From the NCBI RefSeq assembly GCF_008326425.1, contig NZ_AP018929.1, forward strand, positions 362,875-386,874: a stretch of 24,000 nt of DNA, read 5' to 3'. The DNA comes from Sulfuracidifex tepidarius (GTDB lineage Archaea > Thermoproteota > Thermoprotei_A > Sulfolobales > Sulfolobaceae). The notes beneath the pieces were generated by a model, which saw only the letters and a list, made by a program, of their open reading frames with translations, was not told the DNA's origin and ran no database searches. A program made the translations under genes and the position numbers. Below are positions 4,798-23,172 of the stretch, piece after piece; the stretch's first letter is position 1, and each line of letters begins with the position of its first letter.

Positions 4798-6513
4798 TTA
4801 GCACTGCATTCCCTGCTCAGCGCTCAGAAACCTGCAGGATTCTCCGAGCCTAGTCACCAGGTTAAGCCAGAACCTTAGGAACTCTTCCATTCCTTCACTT
4901 CCGCCAGAGAGCACTCTGGGATAAGAACCCTTCACGTCTCCGTTGAATATAGACTTCACAAACTTAAGGTACTCCTTGTAGTTCCCCGACATGAACTTGA
5001 TCGTGAAGCCTATTTGAACCAACTGCCTCAAGAGTTCCTCTTCGTCTACCTCCCCGAGGAAGGAGGAGTAATACATGATCAAGAGTGATGGCACTATACT
5101 GTATCCTAACTCTCCCACCATGTCCATGGGTCTGTACACTACTCTTCCCGTCAAAGGCGAAACGTTCACGCTCTCTATGGACTTACCCATGGATCTGAGG
5201 GAAGGCGCAGTGACGTCGTATACCAAGATCACCGGTTCGTTACCCTTGGAGTGGGAATACACTATGAAGGAGGGCTTATCTAAAGCCAACTTAGTGTACC
5301 TAGACATCATCAAGGAGAGACCGTAAATTGACGGGTTCAGGTTCTTCCTGAGGATGTTGACTCCGAACTCGTTGGTAGCCTTCTTCCCTCCGTAGACTAG
5401 GACTCTCCTGAAGCTCCTCTCAGCCTTGTTTTCCCTTGTGATCTCTTCTCCTTGTAAAGACTTCATGAACCTATCGAAGAGGTACTCATGTGATCGGGTT
5501 AGCTGTTGCGTAAGCGAGTATGGGTCAGCTTCTCCTACTACCTTCATAGACGAAGCCTCGCTCATCGGGAAGTCCAATGCGTCTCTGCACGCGTTTATCA
5601 ACGACTTTCTCTCCCCCCTTCTCACGCGTTCTACGCTCGCGTCCAGTACAGTCCCAGCTATTTCCCTCGATCTGTCAGACAGCGAAGAAAAGTAGTAATC
5701 TAGGTACTCTTCTTTTTTCTTCACGAAGTCCTCTTCTACCAGAGCCCACGCGACGGGCTCCAGGAGCACTGATATCATGGAAGGGTAATAGAACGATAGG
5801 AAATAGCTGTGCTTGACTAAGTCCTCGAAAAGGGAGACCGCGTCTTCCCTCATCATGGCCCCAACTATCTCGTCACTGTTCTTCTTTATTAACTCCAATG
5901 TGTTCTGGTTAACCTCTCTAGGGACCCCCGTAAGCTCGTGGACCATCTCAGAGAACACCGCTTGATCCAACTCAACCCTCCACGAGACGGCGTCTATAAT
6001 CGATCCCGCGGACGTGCCCTTCAAGGTCCTCCAGTGGAGGTGTTCGTGAGTCAGGGTCCTGACAGCATCTCCTTTAACGTCAGTTCTCAGTTTAGAGGCT
6101 AACTCGGTCACGTTCTCACCGTCCTCTATTCCTTCCATCAAAGAAATACCTCCTCTCTTAAACCAGTCGTGAAAGCCCACCTCCATTGACCCTACCGTGT
6201 CGGTATTTATCCCCATGCTCTCCAACGGGATACCTCTCCTTATCACCACCGACTCTCCTGTAAATATGCCTGCGTCAGACTTCAGGTTAGTGTCGTTGAT
6301 GTGTGTGAGCCCTTTCCCTTCCATGAGATGGTGTTCGACCTTCATGGACTTACTGTCGTCGTATAAGGAACTAGTTAGCCAAACTATCAACTTGTCCTTC
6401 ACCATGTCCGGCATATGTGACAAGACCTTGTAGTTTAAGGAGAAGAGAGACTTGCCCAAGTAAAAGTATGTTACCTTAGATAGAAGTAAATCAGCTTTCC
6501 TCACCATCTCCAT
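4798..6513 (-). CDS. Hypothetical soluble 571-aa protein with an HExxH (HEHLH) motif; function unknown
   Basis: It is a long uninterrupted ORF, and the antisense ORFs within it are short. No hydrophobic segments are evident. HEHLH is encoded at 6034-6048 (the reverse complement CACGAACACCTCCAC was checked). I recognise no family. Confidence 0.75.
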   Translation of the reverse strand: MEMVRKADLLLSKVTYFYLGKSLFSLNYKVLSHMPDMVKDKLIVWLTSSLYDDSKSMKVEHHLMEGKGLTHINDTNLKSDAGIFTGESVVIRRGIPLESMGINTDTVGSMEVGFHDWFKRGGISLMEGIEDGENVTELASKLRTDVKGDAVRTLTHEHLHWRTLKGTSAGSIIDAVSWRVELDQAVFSEMVHELTGVPREVNQNTLELIKKNSDEIVGAMMREDAVSLFEDLVKHSYFLSFYYPSMISVLLEPVAWALVEEDFVKKKEEYLDYYFSSLSDRSREIAGTVLDASVERVRRGERKSLINACRDALDFPMSEASSMKVVGEADPYSLTQQLTRSHEYLFDRFMKSLQGEEITRENKAERSFRRVLVYGGKKATNEFGVNILRKNLNPSIYGLSLMMSRYTKLALDKPSFIVYSHSKGNEPVILVYDVTAPSLRSMGKSIESVNVSPLTGRVVYRPMDMVGELGYSIVPSLLIMYYSSFLGEVDEEELLRQLVQIGFTIKFMSGNYKEYLKFVKSIFNGDVKGSYPRVLSGGSEGMEEFLRFWLNLVTRLGESCRFLSAEQGMQC

Positions 6514-6628: not shown

Positions 6629-6979
6629 TCACGTATCTTTTCTGATCTCCTTCTCTAACTTCTCAAGGGTGTCTATCTCGTCCTCGTCTATCTCGTCTAC
6701 GTGTCTGGCTATCTTAGCTGCTAGGTACCTCATCTTCATCTTCTTATCGCTCTTAAGCTGGGCTACTGCTTCCTTGCCTGACTCGGTAATCGAGTAGACG
6801 TCGAACTCGTCCTTTACGACCATTCCCGTCTCGGTCAGACGCTGTAGAGACTGCCAGACAGTCTTGTTGTTCAGCCCGGTAGCTCTAGAGATATTGGCCG
6901 CCCTGTCCCTACCCTTTACGCTCAGATACTCCAAAACTTCTAACTCAGTTGATTTAGGATCCAAGTTATAGTTAGTCAT
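6629..6979 (-). CDS. Small winged-helix-turn-helix transcription regulator (MarR/ArsR-like fold) with an acidic coiled C-terminal tail
   Basis: ELEVLEYLSVKGRDRAANISRATGLNNKTVWQSLQRLTETGMVVK fits helix-turn-helix plus wing. A TATA box lies at 7013-7020. A GAGGT Shine-Dalgarno-like element lies just upstream of ATG 6979. Confidence 0.8.
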   Translation of the reverse strand: MTNYNLDPKSTELEVLEYLSVKGRDRAANISRATGLNNKTVWQSLQRLTETGMVVKDEFDVYSITESGKEAVAQLKSDKKMKMRYLAAKIARHVDEIDEDEIDTLEKLEKEIRKDT

Positions 6980-7468: not shown

Positions 7469-9409
7469 TCAAGGCATAAACAACCTGGCTATGGAAGGCT
7501 CCACATACGTGAAAGCGAGTATTCCCACCAACGCTAAGGTCAATCCTACTATGGATATAACAGTGTTAGCTATAGTTCCGCTTGACGCCTTTCCTAGGAT
7601 TAACCCCACAAAGAAGGAAGAGAGTTCAATGAAGACATACATCAGTTCCTTGAGCTCCTGAGAGATATGTACCCCTTGAAAAGTGTAAACCCCCGTGGTG
7701 GAGATGGTAGGGGAAACCCCAGTTAAATACCCTCCGAAGGAGCTCAGGAGCACAGTAGTTATCAACACGACGAACGTGAGAAGGATAGGTGTCATAACTC
7801 CCAGGAATTGGTACATCCTTATCCTGCTCAACGCCTCCCTCTTGTACTCAACGTACTTCCTCGTGAAGTCGTTAAGTTCCTCGAGTAACATGGTGGAGAC
7901 GTTCCCGCTTTCGGAGATCAATCCGAGCATGAAGAAGGTGAACTTGCCCATCCAGCTCGAGGACGATATTGATACCTCATTTAGAGGAATTCCTGACTTC
8001 ACCTGTGAGCTTGCTTTCCCTAAGATCTCCTTGAAGCGACCCGTGTAGGACTCAGACAATGATACCTTAACCAAGGACTTGTTCACGTTATATCCTATCT
8101 TCCTATACTCAGTTAGATCCCTCAAGAATTGGGGTAAGTTGTCCTCAACGTTCCTGACTTCACTGATCTTGTTCTTGACTTGCAAGTACATGGAGATCGA
8201 TGCAATGACTAGGGACACATAAACATCCACGAAGAGCGGTGCGTGTGAGATAACCCCCACTAGGAAAGACATCACTCCTAGCGCCAACGGTACGGTAGAG
8301 TTGAAGCTCAGATCGTCGAAGGTCTTAGGTCTCCACTCCCTGACCATAGCGTAAAGCGCGACCATAAAGAAAGGAGGCATCAAGATCAGGAGGTAGAGAA
8401 GGCTTATCCCGCCAAATATAGACAACACAAGGAACAGTGTAGGGAAGACCAGGAAGGAGATAATTATCGTCTCTCCAACGGATGAGATCCTGTCTGCATA
8501 AAAGGACCACCTGAAGTTTAGGACGTTCACGAACTCTTTAGCCTTGTCGTTCAGGTAGTCCTGTATGCCTCCCCCAGCCCTGAAAACTGAGGAGTATGCG
8601 TAAAGGAAGGATGCATACTCCTTTAAGGGGTGAACCCTGGCTCTGTAATCCACGAATTGAATCAACGACTTCCCGTGGTTCCTCATCTCCCTGATGAAAG
8701 CCTTAGACTCCCTACCGAAACCCCTAAACACACTCTTCTCATATATCCTCTTGTAAACGTAGGACAAGTTAAGTCCGGAGGAGGAAGCCACAGAGGAAAG
8801 GAAGACGAAGAACGGAAGCTCGTAACTCACGTCCTTGGACTCCTTCTTAGACTTTCCTCTGTAATATATTGCGGGATATTCGTACATCAGGAAAGGAACT
8901 ATCCAGATAGCCTGAACCAGGAGAAGCGAGAATAAGGGTAGCCTAGCTATGAGTAGGGAGAGGACCGACACCGCGTCAATTCCTCCGCAGAGCAGTGTAT
9001 AGGAAATAGATCTACCCACGAAATCAGAAACGAATGACAAGCTGTTGTCGTTCTCGGAGCTCAAGGTCATGTCCCTCTCTACCTTGGACATGTAAGACCT
9101 AACAAGGGAGTTGAACCTCTCCCTCCCAAATATCACCTTCCCCAAGACTTCTCCTTTCGTCCCGTGATACCTCTTTCCCTTTCTCCAAGGTTTAGTGAGG
9201 GCTGAACCCGCGAGGAGGACAGAACCAGCCACTAGAAATAGCTCGTAGTAAGGCAGGAAAAAGGGGAGCGATAACCTCATGTAAGGAAACAAGGCCATGA
9301 AGAGGGAAGCTACCAACAAGGCCATGGAAGCTACGAATAGTGGGGACCTACTCATGAGGTAAAAGCCGAACTCAATTTCCATGAAAGGATCTTCGCGTCT
9401 CTGTTTCAT
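7469..9409 (-). CDS. Type IV filament platform membrane protein (FlaJ/TadC/PilC-like, T2SSF-type)
   Basis: This is a polytopic membrane protein with two internally repeated cytoplasmic segments (ELPFFVFLSSVASSSGLNLSYVYKRI... and NLPQFLRDLTEYRKIGYNVNKSLVKV...), each followed by hydrophobic helices. Its start overlaps the ATPase stop in ATGA (9406-9409). An additional N-terminal hydrophobic region of about 150 aa is present. Confidence 0.85.
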   Translation of the reverse strand: MKQRREDPFMEIEFGFYLMSRSPLFVASMALLVASLFMALFPYMRLSLPFFLPYYELFLVAGSVLLAGSALTKPWRKGKRYHGTKGEVLGKVIFGRERFNSLVRSYMSKVERDMTLSSENDNSLSFVSDFVGRSISYTLLCGGIDAVSVLSLLIARLPLFSLLLVQAIWIVPFLMYEYPAIYYRGKSKKESKDVSYELPFFVFLSSVASSSGLNLSYVYKRIYEKSVFRGFGRESKAFIREMRNHGKSLIQFVDYRARVHPLKEYASFLYAYSSVFRAGGGIQDYLNDKAKEFVNVLNFRWSFYADRISSVGETIIISFLVFPTLFLVLSIFGGISLLYLLILMPPFFMVALYAMVREWRPKTFDDLSFNSTVPLALGVMSFLVGVISHAPLFVDVYVSLVIASISMYLQVKNKISEVRNVEDNLPQFLRDLTEYRKIGYNVNKSLVKVSLSESYTGRFKEILGKASSQVKSGIPLNEVSISSSSWMGKFTFFMLGLISESGNVSTMLLEELNDFTRKYVEYKREALSRIRMYQFLGVMTPILLTFVVLITTVLLSSFGGYLTGVSPTISTTGVYTFQGVHISQELKELMYVFIELSSFFVGLILGKASSGTIANTVISIVGLTLALVGILAFTYVEPSIARLFMP

Positions 9410-10965
9410 GCTTCCATCCTCCTCTCCATTGCTTCAGGGTAGAGATAGAACTCGCTTAACGTCGAGGAAATCTCATGGTAAGAACTCATGTTTCTCTTTA
9501 CCATGAAGGAGAGTAGCTCCCCTCTCCTCTTCACTTCCTTCCAGAGTATGTTCTCGTCCCACCCCATCAGGTTCATCGCGTCCTTGAGCTGTGGTGAAAG
9601 GCTTACCCCTCCGCTCTCGTAAGACATGATTTGTTCGAACCCTTCTCCCACGCTTTCCCAAATTCCGGTGACCTTCCTCACCTGCTTCTTGCTCAAGTAG
9701 TCAGTAGTGTTCTTGATGACGACCACGCTGGATAGCAGGTTCTTGAACTCCTTAGACACGGTGTCCGACAAGAGAGAGACTATCCTTGTCTTCACGTCCT
9801 CCACATTCCCTCCATGAAACGTGGTTAGCCCTCCATGTCCAGTTGATACTGCTTGTACCAGATACTCCATTTCGGATCCCCTGATCTCGCCCACGATAAT
9901 GTAGTCCGGCCTATACCTGAGCGACAGCTTCACCAGATCCGCCATATCGATTTCTTTCCCCGTGTCGAAATTGAGCGTCCTGGTGAATAGACGAACCCAT
10001 ACCTCGTTGGACAACTTCAATTCAGGCGTGTCCTCTATGGTCAGGAACTTAGCGTTAGGGTTAAGTAACATTAAGACGGAATTCAAGAGCGTCGTCTTAC
10101 CCGAACCAGTAGGTCCCACTATGAGCATGAACTTCCTTGCCTCAGCTATTATCCACATGTAGACGGCCTCAGGGATTGTGATCGTCCCGAACCTCAGTAG
10201 GTCAACTATTGTGAATGGTTCCTCAGGATGTTTCCTTATATCGAGCGTAGTTCCAGGGAGGGAGACTTCGTTTCCGTAAGTCACCGCGACCCTGTGTCCT
10301 TCCTTAAGTATGAAGTCCTGCATTGGGTTTGCGATGCTCACGTCTCTGCCTCCGAAGTCTGAAATCTTCTCCACGAACCTCATGAGGTCCCTCTCAGACG
10401 AGAAACGAACGTTAGTCTCAAGCCTGAAGAACTCGGTGAAGTCACGGTGAACTACTGTCACGGGCTTCTCAGATGAGGTGACCTCTATCTCCTCCACTAA
10501 CGGATCGAAGATCATCGGAGATATCCCGGAGTAACTCATCTCCCTCAGTACGAAGTAAGTTACCTTGGATACGTCAAGGGAATTGTCTACTAATTCCATC
10601 TCTTCTTCAACTTCCTTCACGTAGTCCATTATCTTCCTCTTCTGCGAGAAGAAAGTTCCCCTGTCTTCTTCAATAGTGGGCATTGAGGAATAAACGTAAT
10701 CTACTATTGTGCCTACCACCTTGACGTCATCGGGGCTCATTGATGGCTCTGAGATCAAGTAGTATCCCTTTCCTCCGCTGCTCACAACCGTTACGTTCAC
10801 CAAAGAAAGGATTGGATCAACGTCCTTAAGCGTGTACTCCTTTAACACCTTTCCCTTCACCTCGAGGAACTCAGACACCGTGGTTTCCGTCGGAACTACC
10901 TCCGTGGAAGACCCAAGGGACTTTCTGTTAGCAGAATTATTCTTAAAGAATATTTCTTTCATCAT
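9406..10965 (-). CDS. Type IV filament assembly ATPase (FlaI/GspE/VirB11 superfamily, T2SSE-type)
   Basis: Walker A GPTGSGKT is encoded at 10093-10116 (the reverse complement GGACCTACTGGTTCGGGTAAGACG was checked). Also present are the Asp box TIEDTPEL, Walker B PDYIIVGEIRG and His box TGHGGLTTFHG. A TATA box lies about 26 nt upstream of ATG 10965. Confidence 0.95.
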   Translation of the reverse strand: MMKEIFFKNNSANRKSLGSSTEVVPTETTVSEFLEVKGKVLKEYTLKDVDPILSLVNVTVVSSGGKGYYLISEPSMSPDDVKVVGTIVDYVYSSMPTIEEDRGTFFSQKRKIMDYVKEVEEEMELVDNSLDVSKVTYFVLREMSYSGISPMIFDPLVEEIEVTSSEKPVTVVHRDFTEFFRLETNVRFSSERDLMRFVEKISDFGGRDVSIANPMQDFILKEGHRVAVTYGNEVSLPGTTLDIRKHPEEPFTIVDLLRFGTITIPEAVYMWIIAEARKFMLIVGPTGSGKTTLLNSVLMLLNPNAKFLTIEDTPELKLSNEVWVRLFTRTLNFDTGKEIDMADLVKLSLRYRPDYIIVGEIRGSEMEYLVQAVSTGHGGLTTFHGGNVEDVKTRIVSLLSDTVSKEFKNLLSSVVVIKNTTDYLSKKQVRKVTGIWESVGEGFEQIMSYESGGVSLSPQLKDAMNLMGWDENILWKEVKRRGELLSFMVKRNMSSYHEISSTLSEFYLYPEAMERRMEA

Positions 10966-10986
10966 AGTCTATAGCTCTCTACTCAG

Positions 10987-10994
10987 TTTATAAG
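10987..10994 (-). promoter_or_regulatory. TATA box for the ATPase-platform operon
   Basis: Minus-strand CTTATAAA is centred about 26 nt upstream of ATG 10965 (leaderless geometry). Confidence 0.45.
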
Positions 10995-11466
10995 TTAACA
11001 TGAAAGATCCGAACTTCCGTGGGCCTTTCTGTGTTGAAGAGCACGGTAGTTGAAGCAATGTATAAGGTGGCATTCATCTTTTTTATGTACAAGTTCACAT
11101 ATCACCCTTATCCAGTCTTGAACGACGCTCCGTCTACCCTAAGAGGAGGAACGCTTACACTAGAGTGAAGCGGATGCATTTCATTATTAGTTCTAAAAAA
11201 TAGTCCTAGTTTGAGGTTGCAAGTTCTTCGAGGATTAAACGTATTATTCTCTTTTTTGCAATTTTTAATGTTCTCTTGAGTTTTGAACATCGCTAACAGA
11301 CATACATGTTCAGGATGCCAAGCTCAAGATGCTAAGTCTATTCACGTGACTTTCTTTGGTTCATTGCTGATCCTCTTCTCTTCTAAATTGTAGATTCTGT
11401 AGATAGATAGATTTTCTAGACAGAAAAACTTAATAGCCAAAAAAGATAGTCCTTTAGTAGGAAGAC

Positions 11467-11940
11467 ATGAAAAACTTTAAGTCGTTAAAACTGAAAAGAG
11501 GAGAGTCGAACATTATAGGGAGCCTTTTTCTGATCCTTATAGTGGTTGTAGGTGCAATTCTTGTTGGTTATTACGTCTTCGGACTCATATCCAACAACCA
11601 GGCTAAGACCACCATGGAGATCTTGAACGAGAACTACGTCGGTGGCACTCTGTATTTGACATTGAAGAACGTAGGGAACGCGTTAGAGGACGTGAACAGT
11701 GTACAAGTATATCACGGAAATACAGTCATAGGGAGCTATTCGTCATCTGGAGTGACTGTAATGCAGCCCATCAATCCAAATCCCACAACCAGCTCAACTT
11801 CATCCTTACAGCCGGGTCAGGAAACAGTAGTTCAGATACCATTAAGCGGTGCTGAGCCTGGTCAATCTGTGACCGTCATCGTAACGGTAGGATCTGGACA
11901 GTCCGAAAACACGGTGTCTCAGGACTTCACTCTCAACTGA
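11467..11940 (+). CDS. Pilin-like protein with class III (prepilin-type) signal peptide
   Basis: MKNFKSLKLKRG/ESNIIGSLFLILIVVVGAILVGYYVFGLI has a basic leader, Gly at -1 and a hydrophobic helix of about 25 residues. This is followed by a beta-rich domain (LTLKNVGNA...) and a Ser/Thr/Pro patch NPNPTTSSTSSLQPG. Confidence 0.75.
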   Translation: MKNFKSLKLKRGESNIIGSLFLILIVVVGAILVGYYVFGLISNNQAKTTMEILNENYVGGTLYLTLKNVGNALEDVNSVQVYHGNTVIGSYSSSGVTVMQPINPNPTTSSTSSLQPGQETVVQIPLSGAEPGQSVTVIVTVGSGQSENTVSQDFTLN

Positions 11941-11943
11941 AAA

Positions 11944-11972
11944 TTTTCTTTTTATCTTTGTTTTTCTTTTTT
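11944..11972 (+). terminator. T-tract terminator region after pilin-like gene 1
   Basis: Four T4-T6 runs lie within 30 nt immediately after the stop codon (TTTTCTTTTTATCTTTGTTTTTCTTTTTT). This matches the archaeal oligo-T termination signal. Confidence 0.4.
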
Positions 11973-12735
11973 CAAAAAATCATTATCATTATTTATAATT
12001 ATCATCTTTATTTATGATTTTTACTTGTTTACGTGTTTATCCTTTGTACATTCTCTTATCTTTCCTCCTCTATTTTCGCTGAAAACTGACTGAACTTTCG
12101 TCTCTTCGCGTCGATGGTAGGGATCCTTGGTAAGTATCCAGTTTGAAACGGGTTCTCTGGGTTACGTCAGTGATGCTTTCAGGTAATAGATGAGACCGTG
12201 ACGGTTGAGGCGGGGCATGCGTGATACATTCCATTCCCAATAGCTATGATTGATGCGCCTCCTACCTCTCATCCAATCCTCGGATTCGGAAACGATCCGT
12301 AGTTTAGTCCTCTTCTGCAAGCGAAGCAAGAAGTCTATAAGGCAGGTAACCTATTGATGGACTCTCTGCTTGTCACATACAGCTTCAACTAGCGAGCGTT
12401 TTACTATCACGATGAAGCCGTTTGAAAGAGGAGTGAAATATACCACGCATGTTATCTTATCACCTTAGGGACTATTTCTCCTAGGGAAGAATTTGAGTAT
12501 CGTAGTAACTCTCACTATTCCAAATTTTATGATCTAAAACTCACATAGAGATAGTTCTCTTAGAGAAATTACGATCTATTTTCCACAAGGCTCTCATCGT
12601 CCATGGTTAACACACGGTTTCGTATTTCAACGCTTATTATGAATTAAGAGATACCATCTATAAGAAGAATTATTCTTGAAGGAAAATTCTTTCATTATAA
12701 CTTTTAACTTCTCTCTTACTATTTAGAATGAGAAA

Positions 12736-13215
12736 ATGAATGCGAGAAAATCAAGAAAAGGAGTATCTGAGGTTGTGGGGGCAGTCCTTCTGATACTGAT
12801 AACTCTAATCGCAATGGTTTATTTGGTGGAGACTTACCTTAGGCAGTCGGGCTTCGCAGACCAAGGGTTCGCTGAAGAAGCCCATTACCAGGAACTTAAG
12901 GCCGGGCAAATGGTCGATACAGTTTACTATGCTAACCATAAAGTTACGCAGGGCTACTTGGATTGTTTCATAATAGTGAACGTTGGAGATAACATAGTCT
13001 TGTCTAAACACGGTGTGTTGAGCCAAGACTCGGGCACGCCTTGTCCTTACTATGTGGAAGTGTCGAACTCTTCGGGGAACACGCTCCTTGGAAGCAACAG
13101 CTCGATAACCCTGACCCATGGGATGACCTATAAGATCATGGTATTAAGCAAGACCGAGCTTTCCTCCATATACTTAAACGCGTCCGGAGAGAATATCATC
13201 GAGGTGAGCTCATGA
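12736..13215 (+). CDS. Pilin-like protein with class III signal peptide
   Basis: MNARKSRKG/VSEVVGAVLLILITLIAMVYLV is a textbook archaeal prepilin N-terminus. The domain is beta-rich with two Cys and NSS/NAS sequons. Its stop overlaps the next gene's start (ATGA 13212-13215). Confidence 0.8.
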   Translation: MNARKSRKGVSEVVGAVLLILITLIAMVYLVETYLRQSGFADQGFAEEAHYQELKAGQMVDTVYYANHKVTQGYLDCFIIVNVGDNIVLSKHGVLSQDSGTPCPYYVEVSNSSGNTLLGSNSSITLTHGMTYKIMVLSKTELSSIYLNASGENIIEVSS

Positions 13216-13625
13216 GGAAAGGATTAGCGTCCCTATTCGTGGTCATGGCAGTCATGGTGATTGTAATTGCGTTTCTCGGTTTCCTGGGATACGTGTTCTT
13301 GATCAACTCTCAGGTGGATCAGGAGTATCAGAACTATAGGGCTGTTCAACAAGTGAGGGAGCAACAAGAACTGTTCGTGAATGAGGTCTTGAACGGAGAT
13401 GGGCAAGTAGCTTACCTGAACGTCACGAACGACGGGAACGTCCAAGTGAAGATAGTGAACGTGATACACGTGGTTAACGTAAGTGGTTATTACAGCGTAA
13501 TTTTACAATACGAAAACGTGAGTATACCCCCCGGAGGAAACGCCATGATATCCGTTAAGTCCTATCCGCATGAAACGACGCAACTGATAGTGGTGACCAG
13601 CTTGGGTAGGACTTTCACGGCGTAA
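13212..13625 (+). CDS. Pilin-like protein with a very short class III signal peptide
   Basis: MRKG/LASLFVVMAVMVIVIAFLGFLGYVFL, followed by YLNVTNDGNVQVKIVNV, a beta-sandwich-type motif common in archaeal pilin/FlaF/FlaG-like proteins. It is translationally coupled to the upstream pilin gene. Confidence 0.75.
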   Translation: MRKGLASLFVVMAVMVIVIAFLGFLGYVFLINSQVDQEYQNYRAVQQVREQQELFVNEVLNGDGQVAYLNVTNDGNVQVKIVNVIHVVNVSGYYSVILQYENVSIPPGGNAMISVKSYPHETTQLIVVTSLGRTFTA

Positions 13626-13627
13626 TC

Positions 13628-13644
13628 TTTTTCCCATTTCTTTC
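13628..13644 (+). terminator. Possible oligo-T terminator after the pilin 2/3 pair
   Basis: TTTTTCCCATTTCTTTC begins 3 nt after the stop codon. Confidence 0.3.
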
Positions 13645-13900
13645 TATTCCATTATAAAATCTTTTCCCTCTCTCTTTGCTTCCCTACTTCATCCCTTTTT
13701 CACTCTCCCAAACATAACCACTGCTCCTCATCTCTCATCATACCTTTTGTATCTATGTAGATGTCAGATAACAATCTATCTTCTGTCATCATGTGACCTG
13801 CATCGACGTGTTGTCTCGGGGTCTTTAGAAGTTCTAAACCCTTATCTCTCAATCCGTTGGCTATACGATATTACAGTGAGTAGTTTATACTTATAGATAG

Positions 13901-16900
13901 ATGAAGTTTTTTAACTCTCAGTATCTATTACTTCATAGAATGAATGAATTATTAGGTTTAATAGCCTTAACGATGGTAATCATAGTGTCTGTAGGAGTGG
14001 TGTCATACTTCTTCATACTTTACGATCAGAGCCAGGAAGAATACATGAACCAGATCAAGGAGACAGCCCTATCCTCTCCCTTGAGGGCCGACAGTTGGTC
14101 TAACGGAACTATAGCCTACTTCGTGAATAACGGAACTGAGAAGACAGTCACTGGGCTCGTATACGTCCTAGGAGGAAAATTCTTCACGTTGTCTTTCTCC
14201 GACATGAAGGTACCAACTTTCCTCCAGGGATACATGAAGTACTTGCCATCTTGCTACTCCAGAGTGGACTTCAACGGGTTCGTCCTAGGTACTACTGGAA
14301 CTCAGGTGAACAACGGAATAACCTTGGATACAGGGCAGAGGTTAGCTGTACCATATCCCGGGGGTTTCGTCGGGTTAGTCACTACTGGATCTGCAGAGTG
14401 GTACCCTTATTACCCAACTCAAGGGTTTTACAACATGGCTAACCAAGACTCTAACGTCAGTGAGGCTCTCCTGAAACAAGTGTATGGAGAGAACAGTGTC
14501 GCGTCGAACCTCCTCTCACAGGACGAGGCGAACCTCACGATAGAGGTGAGTGGTGGAGGAGAAGTAGGAGTTGTAGCCTCCAACGGCCAATGGCAGGAGT
14601 TCACCCAAGGGGACTGGACCATGACATTACCGAAGTACGTGAACGTGACCCTCATCGCGATCACGGGGTATGATACTACCATGGACGGGTTTAAGGTGAG
14701 CGGTTCCTTCCAGGGGATTTCCTCCTCCTATCTCTTTGAGGAGATAAACCTGACGGGGGACGCGGTGGTTCAAGCCCAGTTCTCCTATTACAGCTCCTCG
14801 GAGTTCATGAATTCCTCCTCCACTTGTCCTATGAAAGTATATGTGAACTTCAATGATGCCGGTTATCCCTTCCCAGGGGGTTACGCTGTGGCGAGCGGCG
14901 ACGGACAGTCAGTGGTCTTTGACAACACCCAGTATTTCGTTATAAACTACACTCAGTCCCTGAACGTGACTTTCCATAACTTCCCCTTCTCAGGATACGT
15001 GGACAACAAGCAGACACTGTCGTCAGGGGACCAGGAGGTTAACCCTAAGTTCCCCTTCCTGGCTTATGAGCTGAGCTTCGTGAACATTCAGACCGGACAG
15101 TCAATATATGCTCTCTCCTTGTTGAACACGACCTTCTTCGGGGTAGGAGTCCAGTGTTATTTCCTGATTTACGGTAACTATTACCCTGGATCCCTCCCCG
15201 AACACGTTACCTTGACCTATCCTGGATACAGACTTTCCTCCTCAAACAGCTCCAGTTTGCTCTTCCTGGGAATACCTAGCCAGATAGGGGAGAACGGAAG
15301 TGCGTGTTGCCCCGCTCAATGCCAGACCTACAGTTACCCCGTCCTAAATGAGACCGCCTCTATGAACGGAGTCTTCGTCGCACCAGGGTTCTCCGTAAAC
15401 GAGAGCGTGATAAACGTCACAGTAGGAGAACATAACCTCACCACAGACACCGAGGAAGGTTTCCAGGACCTCAAGATTTACATGAGACCAATCGTGGACG
15501 TATTCATCATACCCAACGGGTCTGGTCTCCTCATAGCCAACTTCACCAACGCGGTGACAGGGGACCCTCAGTATCAAATCATCAACCCCCTCTCATTTTA
15601 TGAGGCAACCGTACCTTGGGGATCGACTGTGAACGTTTCAGCTGACTCCTTCGTTAACGGAGTCACCTTCCAGGGGTGGAGGATGAACGAGAGCGGGAGC
15701 TTGGTGCTGTCTAACCTCATGGAGAGACCTTACTCCGGGTTGATCTCCGTTAACGTATGCCTCACGACCGGGGACTGGGTCGTGATCTGCGGTTCCTTCT
15801 CAAGATATGATGTAGTGAACGTGTCGGTGGTCAACGGTGTGGGAGGAATCCTCCAGGGAGTGAGCCCTCCCTCAGACCAGGTAGTATATCTGTCCCAGAA
15901 CATCCCGGTGTCGGTGAACTCCATCATGTGTGTTGAAGCATTCCCATACTCTTCCTATCTGTTCTCCAACTGGTCGGGGAACGTGAGTTACGTTACCTTC
16001 CACAACTACACCCTGCTGGAACCTAACGGGAAGGAGGGGAGTTACCTCAGTGGCACTAACGTGCTCTTCAATCCTACCATGGACGTCCTCGTTACTAAGC
16101 CATTCTCTCTGACCTCAAACTACGCTCCCGTCCCTAAGGACTCCTACCTTTCGCTGGGATTCGACATCAACGGGTCTGTCCAGGGGAACTACACGGTTTT
16201 CCAGGACGGGAACTACACCACTTACAACATGTCTAACTACAACCTCATACGGCTACACGTGGGTGCGGGACACTACCCCCTCAACGTCTACGACGTGAAC
16301 TTCTCGTTCGTGGTCTACAACTGGCAGGGAGGAAACCAGTTAGGCGTGTCCCTATCAAGTGAGAACTCGAGCTACGTTCCGATCCCGCACACACATTTCC
16401 TTCACTTGTTACATAACTCTTCCACGATATCGAACACGGAGTACTCCTTCCCCGGGAACGTGATAAACGCTACGGTCAGGGCTAACGTCGCTGTGACACC
16501 CGTTGTTATATGGGTTAACGGAAAGCCTCACCTTTACGGCATATATCAGACCACCATGGAGGGACTGACGTTCTACAACAAGCCCACACCTTGGTACGAC
16601 TGGTTGCTCTACGCTGTAGGGTTGACCATAGGGATCGTGGTGCTGATAGCCTCAGCAGGGGGACCGAGCGAGATCATAGAGGGAGTTGAGACAACCATAT
16701 CCCAAGCCATAGACGAGGGAGTTTCCCTGACCACAGTCAAGTTCTTCTTCAGGGGTTTGCTCAAGGTTGCAGGACTCGACTTTTTCGACCTAACAGAGGG
16801 ACCATCAAACACGTTGCTCAGGATAAAGACCGTCCTCCTTGTCGCCTACGACGCTGACACTTATATTGCTCTCATATTGAGCAAGGAAGGTATAACCAAC

Positions 16901-17473
16901 AACGCAAACATAAAGACCTTCGTCATGGCTTGGTACGGGTTTGGGACTGAGGCCACTTACCCGTCTTTCTCCCGGAATGACTCCAACAGTGTGGCAACTT
17001 ACTCAAGCGTCCCTTCAAGTGACGTGTCCATAGTGAACCTGAACTACGCCGGCAGTCTGGAAACACCTCCAACTCAGAACGAGGAGCTCCTGTCGCTTTA
17101 CGAGTCTGACTCGTCCTCCTCCAATTACCTCTACAAGGGGACCATGTATCAGGTAACCAACCCGGTGAACTACGTGAACTATGGAAACACCTCACTGACT
17201 GACTTCTCAGGTACCTTCAATGGGGTCTACCTGACTTGGGACCAGTTGAGCTACTTGGAGATCGTTAAGTCCTCAGGGGGCTCACTAGCTGGAGGGCTAG
17301 TATCGTCCTTTTTGGGAGGTTTCGGTCTGTTGACCGGAGTGGGGACACTCCTCTCCCTGATACAAGGGAGCACAAGGTACGCGTTCTTCACGTACTACAG
17401 CGAGCCCTTCTTAAACCAGGGGAACGAGGCGATCCAACCAAGCTCGTGGTCCTATAATGTAGATCTCTATTGA
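13901..17473 (+). CDS. Giant (1190 aa) sequon-rich surface protein with a pilin-like N-terminal helix, a central TM segment and a Gly-rich C-terminal hydrophobic segment
   Basis: It is a single uninterrupted 3.57-kb ORF. The N-terminus ...HRMNELLGLIALTMVIIVSVGVVSYFF aligns in register with the pilin-2 mature end VSEVVGAVLLILITLIA. I hand-counted about 34 N-x-S/T sequons. Hydrophobic segments are WLLYAVGLTIGIVVLIASAGG (about 16590-16660) and GGLVSSFLGGFGLLTGVGTLLSLI (about 17275-17365). An alternative start is ATG 13940. Confidence 0.85.
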   Translation: MKFFNSQYLLLHRMNELLGLIALTMVIIVSVGVVSYFFILYDQSQEEYMNQIKETALSSPLRADSWSNGTIAYFVNNGTEKTVTGLVYVLGGKFFTLSFSDMKVPTFLQGYMKYLPSCYSRVDFNGFVLGTTGTQVNNGITLDTGQRLAVPYPGGFVGLVTTGSAEWYPYYPTQGFYNMANQDSNVSEALLKQVYGENSVASNLLSQDEANLTIEVSGGGEVGVVASNGQWQEFTQGDWTMTLPKYVNVTLIAITGYDTTMDGFKVSGSFQGISSSYLFEEINLTGDAVVQAQFSYYSSSEFMNSSSTCPMKVYVNFNDAGYPFPGGYAVASGDGQSVVFDNTQYFVINYTQSLNVTFHNFPFSGYVDNKQTLSSGDQEVNPKFPFLAYELSFVNIQTGQSIYALSLLNTTFFGVGVQCYFLIYGNYYPGSLPEHVTLTYPGYRLSSSNSSSLLFLGIPSQIGENGSACCPAQCQTYSYPVLNETASMNGVFVAPGFSVNESVINVTVGEHNLTTDTEEGFQDLKIYMRPIVDVFIIPNGSGLLIANFTNAVTGDPQYQIINPLSFYEATVPWGSTVNVSADSFVNGVTFQGWRMNESGSLVLSNLMERPYSGLISVNVCLTTGDWVVICGSFSRYDVVNVSVVNGVGGILQGVSPPSDQVVYLSQNIPVSVNSIMCVEAFPYSSYLFSNWSGNVSYVTFHNYTLLEPNGKEGSYLSGTNVLFNPTMDVLVTKPFSLTSNYAPVPKDSYLSLGFDINGSVQGNYTVFQDGNYTTYNMSNYNLIRLHVGAGHYPLNVYDVNFSFVVYNWQGGNQLGVSLSSENSSYVPIPHTHFLHLLHNSSTISNTEYSFPGNVINATVRANVAVTPVVIWVNGKPHLYGIYQTTMEGLTFYNKPTPWYDWLLYAVGLTIGIVVLIASAGGPSEIIEGVETTISQAIDEGVSLTTVKFFFRGLLKVAGLDFFDLTEGPSNTLLRIKTVLLVAYDADTYIALILSKEGITNNANIKTFVMAWYGFGTEATYPSFSRNDSNSVATYSSVPSSDVSIVNLNYAGSLETPPTQNEELLSLYESDSSSSNYLYKGTMYQVTNPVNYVNYGNTSLTDFSGTFNGVYLTWDQLSYLEIVKSSGGSLAGGLVSSFLGGFGLLTGVGTLLSLIQGSTRYAFFTYYSEPFLNQGNEAIQPSSWSYNVDLY

Positions 17474-17554: not shown

Positions 17555-18069
17555 GACTGTATTTTATTCTTCTTTAAGAAAAGTAAAGAATTGACTAAAT
17601 TTTCAGTTAGACATCTTTAAAATTGCTGCCAGGAGATATGTTTCGCGTAGTACTTCGATCTGTTCTATCTAATATAGTATAGCATTAAAGAGATGTGCTT
17701 CGCTAAAACTATCTTGCTCTAGTTCAGACCTCGATTCCATGAGTCTGCCCACCAAGGCTATGCAGATTATTCATGTAGAGAGAAGGGAAAGTTCGAAATT
17801 GCTCCTCGGATCTCTCCCCGCGGCCAAGTACTTGACTGGCACGTCACGACAACAAGTTCCCTGAGTTAGGTCGTCTACATCAAGCCAGTTTTTGGCTTAC
17901 CCTTGAACATAACCTGCTTCCACGTAAATGAGGTAGAGAATTGAGGTAAAGCTTAACATAGTGGAACACTACTGAAGCATTTATTTTACATGGAGACACT
18001 CTTCTACAACATTATTCTATCGATATATCTAGTTCTTCTATAGTTAGAAGTCTATAATTAGAAGAATAC

Positions 18070-18077
18070 TTTAAATA
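18070..18077 (+). promoter_or_regulatory. TATA box for the 190-aa membrane protein gene
   Basis: TTTAAATA is centred about 26 nt upstream of ATG 18101. Confidence 0.45.
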
Positions 18078-18100
18078 GATGATAGAGTACATTAACCTAA

Positions 18101-18673
18101 ATGAAAAAAGAAATTAGCGAGGAAAAGGATGCGATCAAAGTAAAATGGGTCACTCCGAGAGGAGTGTTAGCCCTTGTTATCCCCATTACAGGGCTCATTA
18201 CAGCGTATGTGCTGAACGATATCATTTTACTTGATTATGTCCACGTGATGTCCGGTCTGCTTTGGACGGGCATCGATATCTTTATGGGGTTTGTTTTATC
18301 TTACACGTTGAAGTCTCTTGATCCGAAGGCGAAAGCCGACGTAGCGAGGAGTTTAACTCCCACCATGCTCTTCCTCATGCCGAGCATAGCAACGGTAGCC
18401 GTTACTAGCGGGTACATTTTAGCAAGTGAAATGGGAATTTTTAGCTTAAGCTCTCCGTTGATAATATCTGCCGTAATAATAATAGCTATATTGATGATAC
18501 AAGGTTTCGGGATATTCTTGCCAAATGAGGTCAGAGTAGTGCTTGAATTGAACAAAGATGAACCTAGCTACGGAAAAATTGGAAAGTTAATGATGATAAA
18601 CTTCAAGCTATCTGGAGTACAAGGGATACTTCAGTTATTGTTAATTTTCGTCATGGCCCACCTAGCTATTTAA
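18101..18673 (+). CDS. Hypothetical integral membrane protein (about 4 TM helices)
   Basis: The hydrophobic segments are VLALVIPITGLITAYVL, VMSGLLWTGIDIFMGFVLSY, MLFLMPSIATVAVTSGYILA, LIISAVIIIAILMIQGFGIF and a C-terminal LLLIFVMAHLAI. The promoter geometry is good. The gene is visibly more AT-rich than its neighbours. I recognise no family. Confidence 0.7.
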   Translation: MKKEISEEKDAIKVKWVTPRGVLALVIPITGLITAYVLNDIILLDYVHVMSGLLWTGIDIFMGFVLSYTLKSLDPKAKADVARSLTPTMLFLMPSIATVAVTSGYILASEMGIFSLSSPLIISAVIIIAILMIQGFGIFLPNEVRVVLELNKDEPSYGKIGKLMMINFKLSGVQGILQLLLIFVMAHLAI

Positions 18674-19029
18674 GAACTCAGTGTCTTTCTTTTCAGGATC
18701 ATGCAAGGCACTTATTTTTCTTTTATGCGAGTCCGTGGCTCATGATAAGTTCTAATCAAGCGCCTAGCTAAAGGGAGTCACGTAAGCTCTAGATTTGAAG
18801 AGATCCAAAGAGGGAGTCTGAACTTGTTTAAGGTATGGTAAGTGTATTCCACGTGGTGCTGATAATTGAAATGTTCCGAAAAGAACTTGATGACAAGAAG
18901 GTCTGCTAGTCTAAAGACGCAAAAAGCGTTCGTATCTATCTGCACTACTTAGAGTTACAAAGTGGAAAAGGAAAGATTTCTATCTAAGAGATTACATGAT
19001 GCGATCTGAATTATCTATCCTTCTAGTTT

Positions 19030-22013: not shown

Positions 22014-22880
22014 TTAAAAAGATTTTATTTTATTCATCTCCTTGGCTATCCTCACAGCCTTCAGGGCACTGGCTTCCTTATCCTTTATCTCCAGCATGAC
22101 GTCTACGTCTTTCACAACTTTCAGGAAATCCCTGAAGTCCGTTTCAGACAAAGTGGAGGCGTGGACGCCTCTCCTCTCCCCTGGCTCCTGGGAGCTGTAG
22201 TCCATCATAGGCGTACCCCTCCAAGTTCCCCTCACTAAGTCCAGCGCTTCTTCCAAGCTCTCCCCGTCGTTGTTCAGGGAATGGTGTAGGTTGTCCAGCA
22301 CTATCGGTATCCCAGTTCCCCTCCATACCTCTAAGCAGTCCCTCACTGTGTACACCCTGTCGTCGTTCTCCACCACCAGTCTGTTCCTCAAGTTCTCAGG
22401 CAACAGGGAGAAGTTCTCAACGAACCTCCTGACCCCTTCCTCCTTCCCTCCCTTGGAACTACCCACGTGTATCTGTATCTTTCCTTCAACGCCCATCAAG
22501 TCCAACAAGTCGGCGTGGTACTTCAGTTCCTCTATAGAGCTCCTCACCACTTCACCCCTCTCAGAGTTCAGGACGGTGTACTGCCCTGGATGCATTGAGA
22601 TCCTGATGGACTTCTCCCTTATCACTTCCCCGACCTCCTCCAAGAGTCCCCTCATTTCCTTCCTCCAGTCAAAGGTCATCTTGGGATGGGACGCGAACGG
22701 TATCGTGTTGGAGCTTATCCTGAAGAAGAGAATGTCGTGTTCCACGTTCCACTCCAAGGTCCTCTTCAGACACTCCAGGTTACTGTTAGCTACACCCTTC
22801 ACTCTCTCCAGATGATCGAGTTTCACCGTAGAGTCTGCCTTGCACAGGGAGCGGTTTGTGGACACGTAGCCTATCTTCAC
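22014..22880 (-). CDS. uvdE: UV damage endonuclease (UvdE/UvsE family)
   Basis: TIM-barrel UVDE motifs are present: KIGYVSTN, FFRISSNTIPFASHP, ISMHPGQYTVLNS, IQIHVGS, LVVENDDRVYTV, IVLDNLHHS and MLEIKDKE. The ORF track extends to ATG 22949. However, family N-termini begin at the (K/R)xGYV motif, and a TATA box (22902-22909) sits about 26 nt upstream of GTG 22880. Confidence 0.9.
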   Translation of the reverse strand: MKIGYVSTNRSLCKADSTVKLDHLERVKGVANSNLECLKRTLEWNVEHDILFFRISSNTIPFASHPKMTFDWRKEMRGLLEEVGEVIREKSIRISMHPGQYTVLNSERGEVVRSSIEELKYHADLLDLMGVEGKIQIHVGSSKGGKEEGVRRFVENFSLLPENLRNRLVVENDDRVYTVRDCLEVWRGTGIPIVLDNLHHSLNNDGESLEEALDLVRGTWRGTPMMDYSSQEPGERRGVHASTLSETDFRDFLKVVKDVDVMLEIKDKEASALKAVRIAKEMNKIKSF

Positions 22881-22901
22881 AGCGAGAAGGAGGAGGGTAA
22901 G

Positions 22902-22909
22902 AAAATAAA
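22902..22909 (-). promoter_or_regulatory. TATA box for uvdE
   Basis: Minus-strand TTTATTTT is centred about 26 nt upstream of GTG 22880. Confidence 0.45.
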
Positions 22910-23172
22910 GGTGAGTTCCAAAAGGTGGAAAGGCGAGCACGTGACGCAAGTTGCCTTACGAACGTCAGAAGAGTTTGAAAAGGTGAATTCATCCCTAATT
23001 CGTCCTTCAAGAATAGGTGAACTCGTAAATATTGATTTCTGTCTTAAAGTTCTTCTCATCGAATGAATACTGTTCTAAACCTGACATAAGTGACTAAAAA
23101 GACTGTAATACTTTTGCAAAACTATTCGTTATTTTCAATTACTTTTAAATACCGTTTTTCGGTCAAGTAACG

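Follow-up and report, generated by a model that had tools for sequence, protein, structure and literature searches.

A Bas-lineage type IV filament-like locus of Sulfuracidifex tepidarius with a giant pilin-headed protein

A 24,000-nucleotide (nt) stretch of DNA from Sulfuracidifex tepidarius (hereafter, the window) holds a group of genes that resembles the type IV filament-like assembly systems of the Sulfolobales, above all Bas, the bindosome, which is made up of BasEF and BasABC (PMC3047682). The initial annotation of this stretch had listed six open reading frames (ORFs) at the locus, namely those of a secretion ATPase, its platform protein, three small pilin-like proteins and a giant protein, and all six were confirmed at their coordinates (Table 1); an NCBI protein encoded on a 2.54-Mb contig matches the ATPase with 100% identity. 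The evidence presented below establishes that a Bas-lineage motor, three pilin-like proteins with class III-type signals and an expanded, pilin-headed fourth protein are encoded side by side, and the locus is probably a surface-display or adhesion machine.

Table 1. Features of the locus and its surroundings, in window positions. Slashes mark putative leader cleavage sites.
Feature	Position	Strand	Description
Winged-helix regulator	6629..6979	(-)	116 aa; PF14947 HTH_45, 26.7 bits vs cut-off 25.5; downstream of platform gene
BasF-like polytopic platform protein	7469..9409	(-)	646 aa; PF00482 T2SSF, two stretches
BasE-like secretion/assembly ATPase, motor	9406..10965	(-)	519 aa; PF00437 T2SSE, E 1e-35
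Divergent intergenic region, motor vs pilin genes	10966..11466		501 bp, read from sequence
BasC-like pilin-like protein	11467..11940	(+)	157 aa; class III-type N-terminus KRG/ESNIIG...
Non-coding gap, BasC-like to BasA-like gene	11941..12735		795 bp
Relic of ATPase 5' end and start junction	12657-12699	(-)	43 bp, 81% identical to 10924-10966; minus-strand reading MKEFSFKNNSSY
BasA-like pilin-like protein	12736..13215	(+)	159 aa; N-terminus RKG/VSEVVG...
BasB-like pilin-like protein	13212..13625	(+)	137 aa; N-terminus MRKG/LASLF...
Giant pilin-headed protein	13940..17473	(+)	1177 aa from M14; ORF opens at 13901 (1190 aa)
Polytopic membrane protein	18101..18673	(+)	190 aa; weak DUF2269 match

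The motor is complete, as had been described from the sequence. The ATPase carries a Walker A motif (GPTGSGKT, residue 284), an Asp box (EDTPEL, 311), a Walker B motif (YIIVGE, 355) and a His box (HGGLTTFH, 377), and its nearest solved structures are afGspE (2OAP) and FlaI (4II7). Its stop codon overlaps the start codon of the platform gene as ATGA (the minus strand reads GCATGAAAC). Motor and pilin genes point away from each other across the divergent intergenic region, whose extent was likewise confirmed. Here, TTATAAA lies at 10987-10993 on the minus strand, 22-28 nt upstream of the ATPase start codon, and by analogy with the TATA-box spacing of Sulfolobales this may be the promoter element of the ATPase gene.

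All three small proteins show a [KR]G cleavage-type pattern followed by ~22 hydrophobic residues: the N-termini read MKNFKSLKLKRG/ESNIIGSLFLILIVVVGAILVG in the 157-aa protein, MNARKSRKG/VSEVVGAVLLILITLIAMVYLV in the 159-aa protein and MRKG/LASLFVVMAVMVIVIAFLGFLG in the 137-aa protein. Two of the three pass the curated cut-off (20 bits) of TIGR02537, the N-terminal domain of archaellins and type IV pilins, with 22.7 bits for the 157-aa and 25.0 bits for the 159-aa protein. The class III signals assigned to them earlier agree with this pattern, by which all three would be candidates for cleavage by PibD. Within the Bas locus of Saccharolobus, the best match of the 157-aa protein is BasC (E 1e-10); a 155-aa pilin from a related locus of Sulfolobales archaeon HS-7 (L005; see below) scores higher overall (4e-13), and there is a weak match to the Pyrobaculum pilin 8FK7. 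The BasA-like and BasB-like genes overlap by ATGA (13212-13215).

The giant protein had been described as 1190 aa long with a pilin-like N-terminal helix. While ORF and helix are real, NCBI annotates the protein with 1177 aa (P0121) and all homologues begin at the equivalent methionine, so that translation most likely starts at M14 (13940) and not at 13901. A TTTTTTAA box lies ~33 nt upstream of 13940 and might be a promoter element; the gap before the gene measures 275-314 bp. The leader, MNELLG/, is followed by a 22-aa hydrophobic helix. A pilin-like beta-sandwich spans residues 1-155, and an ectodomain that is predicted to be beta-rich and is rich in N-X-S/T sequons extends to ~884, followed by hydrophobic segments at 889-907 and ~1120-1141. 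Residues 45-884 hold 32 sequons (12.3 +/- 3.1 expected) and residues 906-1105 only two (3.2 expected), confining the enrichment to the former part. The ectodomain is thus probably heavily N-glycosylated, and an extracellular ectodomain followed by hydrophobic segments fits the distribution of the sequons.

A phmmer search of 1.84 billion representative proteins returned a fragment of the giant itself and six relatives, five of which measure 987-1455 aa; two word-indexed protein searches, with the giant alone and with the family profile, returned only the giant itself. The giant has no relatives in Pfam, NCBIfam or the PDB. A Pfam scan of six family members revealed no common domain, the weak InlB B-repeat match of the window giant not being reproduced, and the PDB, searched by sequence with the family profile and the BasA-like pilin, returned chance-level matches only. 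What the family shares is its N-terminus, M-x-[ED]-x-[LI]-G, in which the glycine at position 6 never varies, then ~22 hydrophobic residues and motifs that are conserved to about residue 160. A hidden Markov model of the giant's N-terminal domain matches BasB-like pilins (E 1e-6; E 1.2e-6 for the window's own 137-aa protein). Besides, hhalign aligns residues 1-153 of the giant with residues 1-145 of the 506- and 514-aa proteins of canonical Bas loci (probability 89%, E 2e-6), and the giant's head with a 274-aa protein of a further Bas-like locus (L092; probability 81%). By these profile comparisons, the ~150-residue head has homologues in the BasB-like pilins and in the ~500-aa Bas-locus protein. 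An AlphaFold2 model of residues 1-169 (predicted local distance difference test (pLDDT) 78.6) shows a helix (2-44) and a beta-sandwich.

The five other proteins find their best NCBIfam models one-to-one among the Bas components: BasE with 426.5 bits (NF053672, curated cut-off 1000), BasF with 325 (NF053673, cut-off 1300), BasC with 30.5, BasA with 36 and BasB with 33 (cut-offs of the latter three, 230-260). Matches to PF00437, PF00482 and TIGR02537 complete the family assignments. On the BasE model, true BasE proteins of Saccharolobus and S. tengchongensis reach 1094-1138 bits (P0008, 1138; P0009, 1094), the window ATPase and its nearest relatives 396-461 bits and Ups-type ATPases 330-335 bits. 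On the FlaI model, the ATPase scores 248 bits (cut-off 550). The platform protein scores 258 bits with UpsF, below its 325 bits with BasF, and 21.8 bits with ArlJ (cut-off 550), and matches to the UpsA model in the window amount to 18 and 14 bits (cut-off 130). Identities follow the same order, with 44% of the ATPase to Saccharolobus BasE and 37% to UpsE, and 35% of the platform protein to BasF and 22% to UpsF. Among hits of at least 263 bits there is no further Bas-type ATPase from S. tepidarius, and the locus therefore seems to be the sole one of the Bas lineage in this species.

We placed the ATPase in a neighbour-joining tree of 119 ATPase hits, with 200 bootstraps on a 38-taxon subset. 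It groups with sequences from a metagenome-assembled genome (MAG), two HS-7 paralogues and an Acidianus MAG (93%; hereafter, the window clade), and outside both the canonical BasE clade and the Ups clade (100% each), the latter being anchored by its synteny (upsX-E-F-A-B, then endonuclease III, a ParB-like gene, a glycosyltransferase and a helicase). Window clade, canonical BasE and a third small group form a Bas superclade (88.5%), inside which the branching is weak (two tested alternatives obtained 35% and 13.5%), and Bas plus Ups are united at 99.5%. The ATPase falls in none of the canonical BasE, UpsE and FlaI groups and the three pilins have class III-type N-termini, so that the outcomes named beforehand as refuting the initial idea did not occur. 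Bas and Ups loci of the Sulfolobales constitute subclade 4I (Makarova et al. 2016, PMC4858521; preprint 10.64898/2026.04.22.720090), and the window locus would be filed there as well, because it has the same Bas-type parts: a T2SSE ATPase within the Bas plus Ups clade, a TadC/FlaJ-like platform and PilA-type pilins. The locus belongs to neither Ups nor the archaellum. Measured against canonical Bas, it has the gene set, with three small class III-signal proteins beside the E/F pair, and stays short of the BasE and BasF cut-offs.

The comparison with Bas of Saccharolobus solfataricus and S. shibatae shows the same five parts, coupled E and F genes, A followed by B, and a further protein whose pilin-like head likewise begins M-x-[ED]-x-[LI]-G, the ATPases sharing the superclade mentioned above. 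On the other hand, the window ATPase belongs to a separate clade, with less than half the BasE score. The canonical locus of S. shibatae is co-linear, A-B-C-E-F, and continues with a 506-aa protein without Pfam match; Sulfolobus sp. A20 has the same layout, with E-F and then a 514-aa protein. In the window, by contrast, the pilin genes diverge from the motor, are split by the 795-bp gap and place C before A and B, and the fourth component has 1177 instead of ~506 aa. The link to sugar uptake is documented for canonical Bas. The label "non-canonical" given to the locus by the initial annotation is overstated, since divergent orientation is usual among relatives: L002 and L005 show it, which makes it a trait of the window clade. 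The comparison of gene order covers individual related loci. A genome-contig search with the ATPase alignment returned mainly bacterial Walker A matches and two archaeal loci (35% identity); a search of metagenome contigs yielded only three loci.

With Ups, its sister lineage in 4I, the locus shares an ATPase, a platform and small class III pilins, and Ups, too, has a large accessory protein, UpsX. Yet the window ATPase and platform stand well apart from their Ups counterparts, and the DNA-repair genes linked to Ups are not adjacent here. UpsX was also considered as the giant's counterpart and dismissed, as it lacks a pilin-like N-terminus and any similarity to the giant.

The giant family keeps telling company. 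In HS-7 (AP024596.1), one giant-family gene directly follows a platform gene (L004), another lies ~20 kb away in the same region amid further pilin triplets (L090), and a third (P0125) is found ~10 kb from the second motor (L005). In metagenome contigs (L008, L009 and L095), the giant gene comes after a motor, two pilin genes and a thermopsin-like gene; L002 carries a giant-family gene and a motor, and in L094 the giant-family gene diverges from an A/B-like pair. All told, the family occurs near Bas-like pilins or motors in all seven other readable contexts, from at least four independent sources, and in all but one of these (L094) it is also near an ATPase/platform pair of this type. This bears on the possibility that the giant is unrelated to the motor, being a membrane glycoprotein of the S-layer or otherwise that has an N-terminal signal anchor and simply neighbours the pilin genes. 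The giant's size and sequon load indeed resemble those of Sulfolobales S-layer proteins, a gap and probably a promoter of its own precede the gene, and its leader departs from the canonical class III signal. Against this stand the conserved company, the profile-level homology of the head to BasB-like pilins and the Bas-locus protein, the lack of a sequence match between the family profile and any solved chain, S-layer proteins included, and the absence of a SlaB-like partner gene next to the giant gene; a chance neighbour is very improbable and the least likely of the three rival explanations that we considered.

Our preferred explanation, to which we assign a probability of roughly 0.6, is that the locus encodes a type IV filament-like assembly of the Bas/Ups lineage (4I), on a sister branch of the canonical bindosome, onto which the giant is docked and by which it is displayed. 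Of the two alternatives put forward initially, a diverged Bas-like machine tied to the giant is hence supported by the best-scoring Bas models, the tree and the co-occurrence. The other, an undescribed filament system, went too far: the ~500-aa protein of canonical Bas loci, which shares the giant's N-terminal module, is arCOG08524, a secreted protein already noted in bindosome loci and proposed to be an adhesin or S-layer protein (Makarova et al., PMC4858521).

Mechanistically, the three small proteins and the giant would be inserted into the membrane with the N-terminus inside and the C-terminus outside, and the small proteins would be trimmed by the PibD of the genome, encoded elsewhere. 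The hexameric ATPase would then drive the platform to extract the hydrophobic helices of the small proteins and build from them a short pseudopilus or filament, into which the pilin head of the giant could dock. This would bring the N-glycosylated, beta-rich ectodomain up to the S-layer or across it, where it would stay as an adhesin or a module for surface display; in S. tepidarius, the C-terminal hydrophobic segments may tether one end of the giant to the membrane. Such a principle, in which a hexameric ATPase with its platform drives a short stack of pilin-like helices that ends in a large non-pilin domain, might also be recognised in bacteria, in the pseudopili of type II secretion and at the tips of type IV pili (GspK; PilY1/PilC). 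These bacterial systems differ in that there is no sequence kinship beyond the ATPase and platform superfamilies, that archaeal envelopes possess an S-layer and lack a secretin, and that the large domain in the window is fused to a pilin-like head. Within archaea, large beta-rich surface proteins next to an ATPase/platform/pilin module are also known as the adhesin-like proteins of systems 2, 4A, 4B, 4F and 4G (PMC4858521; preprint 10.64898/2026.04.22.720090), from which the giant family differs by being distinct, restricted to a few Sulfolobales and equipped with its own pilin-like head.

Several observations weigh against our preferred explanation. All five Bas scores remain far under the curated cut-offs, and functional orthology to Bas would not follow from scores of this kind. 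The tree was built by neighbour-joining from the hits of one search and lacks labelled AapE or ArlI sequences. Although the top PDB match of the giant's head in Foldseek is an archaeal type IV pilin of Pyrobaculum, the match is not significant (E 0.04, TM score 0.31-0.37). The full-length AlphaFold2 model of the giant (pLDDT 32) is unusable and was left out of the fold search; the remainder of the giant is predicted to be beta-rich. In addition, the MNELLG leader is acidic, has no basic residue, at -2 or elsewhere, and is not recognised by TIGR02537, so cleavage of the giant by PibD is unproven. A giant with extra membrane anchors would not simply be extrudable; the segment at 889-907, for its part, is not conserved in two of five full-length relatives. 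Finally, L094 has pilin genes and no motor in the 13.6 kb covered of this 15.6-kb contig.

Two other functions for the same genes have to be weighed. The locus might simply be the functional bindosome of S. tepidarius, whose motor and pilins would position class III-signal solute-binding proteins encoded elsewhere near ABC transporters, with the giant in a supporting structural role or in contact with the S-layer, as for arCOG08524 in Saccharolobus. That Bas models fit all five proteins best, that no other Bas-type ATPase was seen for this species in the range searched and that the giant's N-terminal module recurs in the 506/514-aa proteins all speak for it, as do the documented role of Bas in the localisation of sugar-binding proteins (PMC3047682) and the wide distribution of class III-signal substrate-binding proteins reported in archaea (preprint 10.64898/2026.04.22.720090). 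However, the ATPase clade is separate from canonical BasE, with high bootstrap values on both sides and 44% identity, and the two motors and three giants of HS-7 look like diversification around giants and not like one housekeeping bindosome. The window contains no ABC transporter or binding protein, only a transporter of the major facilitator superfamily (MFS). Sulfuracidifex species are strong sulfur oxidisers, S. metallicus being an obligate chemolithoautotroph (PMC11323534, PMC10793343), and a lifestyle of this kind would present no obvious need for sugar scavenging. We therefore consider an ordinary bindosome unlikely, albeit the strongest of the rivals.

Still less likely, in our judgement, is a true long pilus for adhesion, comparable to Aap or Ups, in which the small proteins would serve as major and minor pilins and the giant as a tip or priming adhesin akin to PilY1/PilC or large minor pilins. 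The full core set of ATPase, platform and three pilins would allow for it, as would the giant's pilin-like head, and large adhesin-like proteins are seen repeatedly among the type IV filament loci of archaea (PMC4858521; preprint 10.64898/2026.04.22.720090). In related sulfur oxidisers, aggregates of cells are tethered to sulfur (PMC11323534), a habitat context that is circumstantial. Yet no pilus has been seen by electron microscopy for Bas, the nearest studied system (PMC2910488), the two C-terminal hydrophobic segments argue against a free tip subunit, and there is no sequence similarity to PilY1-type domains.

Going beyond the preferred explanation of a Bas/Ups-lineage assembly that displays the giant, the window clade could as a whole be a distinct surface-display machine of the Sulfolobales, and no bindosome, whose motor and three small pilins mainly serve to install rapidly diversifying pilin-headed N-glycoproteins of more than 1000 aa. 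We regard this as a tentative and rather doubtful proposal. If true, the giants might attach sulfur- or metal-oxidising cells to minerals, to sulfur or to each other, and the pilin-headed arCOG08524 protein would be the native core cargo of Bas.

Motor and pilins were known already, as was the general pattern of large surface proteins encoded at type IV filament loci of archaea. What is new are the distinct sister clade of Bas, the pilin-headed fourth component shared across Bas-type loci, and its expansion into an unannotated family of giants. The bindosome is the least understood type IV filament system of the Sulfolobales, with no structure seen and the role of BasABC unresolved. A pilin-headed fourth component that is common to Bas-type loci of several genera, ranges from 274 to 1455 residues and has become a giant in one branch therefore represents a concrete, testable candidate for what Bas-type motors assemble. 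Besides, an unannotated family of surface proteins may bear on adhesion in bioleaching-type archaea.

Among the related loci, L002 is the nearest relative, with an ATPase that is 74% identical. Of its two A/B-like pairs, one points away from the ATPase gene across 35 bp and the other is followed by the giant gene. The first 386 residues of the giant (13940-15097) and the region of the 190-aa protein (18063-18693) are each 85% identical between window and L002, whereas the platform protein reaches 64%, the BasA-like pilin 53% (to a 155-aa protein) and the BasB-like pilin 46% (to a 132-aa protein). Either motor and pilins evolve faster or the locus is a mosaic. HS-7 shows a strong local expansion (~1.26-1.31 Mb and 1.59-1.61 Mb; L004, L005, L090), with two motor pairs of the window clade, three genes of the giant family (1300, 1415 and 1455 aa, only 23-28% identical to the window giant) and at least four sets of small pilin genes. 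A third Bas-like locus (L092:1-16339) comprises an ATPase gene (P0012, 4735-6339) and genes for a platform, three pilins, the 274-aa pilin-headed protein and an HTH_45 regulator. The locus is flanked by a ParB_N gene and by a gene for a TraG/VirD4-type coupling protein, which suggests that it is carried on a conjugative or integrated element.

The 795-bp gap inside the pilin set, confirmed as initially reported, contains no ORF of more than 56 aa, and neither an Rfam family nor a signal of RNA structure was seen in it (fold z-scores +2.05 and +0.11). When it was checked for pseudogene remnants, the 43-bp relic of the ATPase 5' end was the sole find. The relic lies 41 bp upstream of the BasA-like gene, and its layout is matched by the 35-bp divergent junction between the ATPase gene and the A/B-like pair of L002. 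It looks like the remnant of a duplicated and rearranged divergent junction of motor and pilin genes. By eye, the centre of the gap (12095-12390) is higher in G+C than the T-rich stretch right after the BasC-like gene.

As for the rest of the window, 19 ORFs of 88-1190 aa, including every ORF of at least 160 aa, were scanned against Pfam and NCBIfam. In agreement with the initial annotation, no peptidase A24/PibD homologue, no archaellum accessory genes (ArlF/G/H/X) and, by Pfam, no radical-SAM or iron-sulfur AapX-like gene were found among them. The winged-helix protein encoded after the platform gene is possibly a local regulator, if uncertainly so; an HTH_45 gene is kept after the platform gene in L002 (83% identity) and follows the pilin set in L092. 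The 571-aa ORF beside it (4798-6513, minus strand) has no Pfam or NCBIfam match. Likewise with some uncertainty, the 190-aa membrane protein is a possible accessory component: its L002 counterpart (85% identity) is encoded after the pilin pair that adjoins the ATPase gene. It was also compared with the 251-aa membrane protein of the canonical Bas locus L001, to which it has no similarity. No mobile-element genes are evident in the window, and the flanks (coordinates 22014-22949 and 1394-2719, both minus strand) are ordinary chromosomal genes, encoding a UvdE UV endonuclease (E 4e-63), the MFS transporter, an MscS-like channel and an HPP-family membrane protein.

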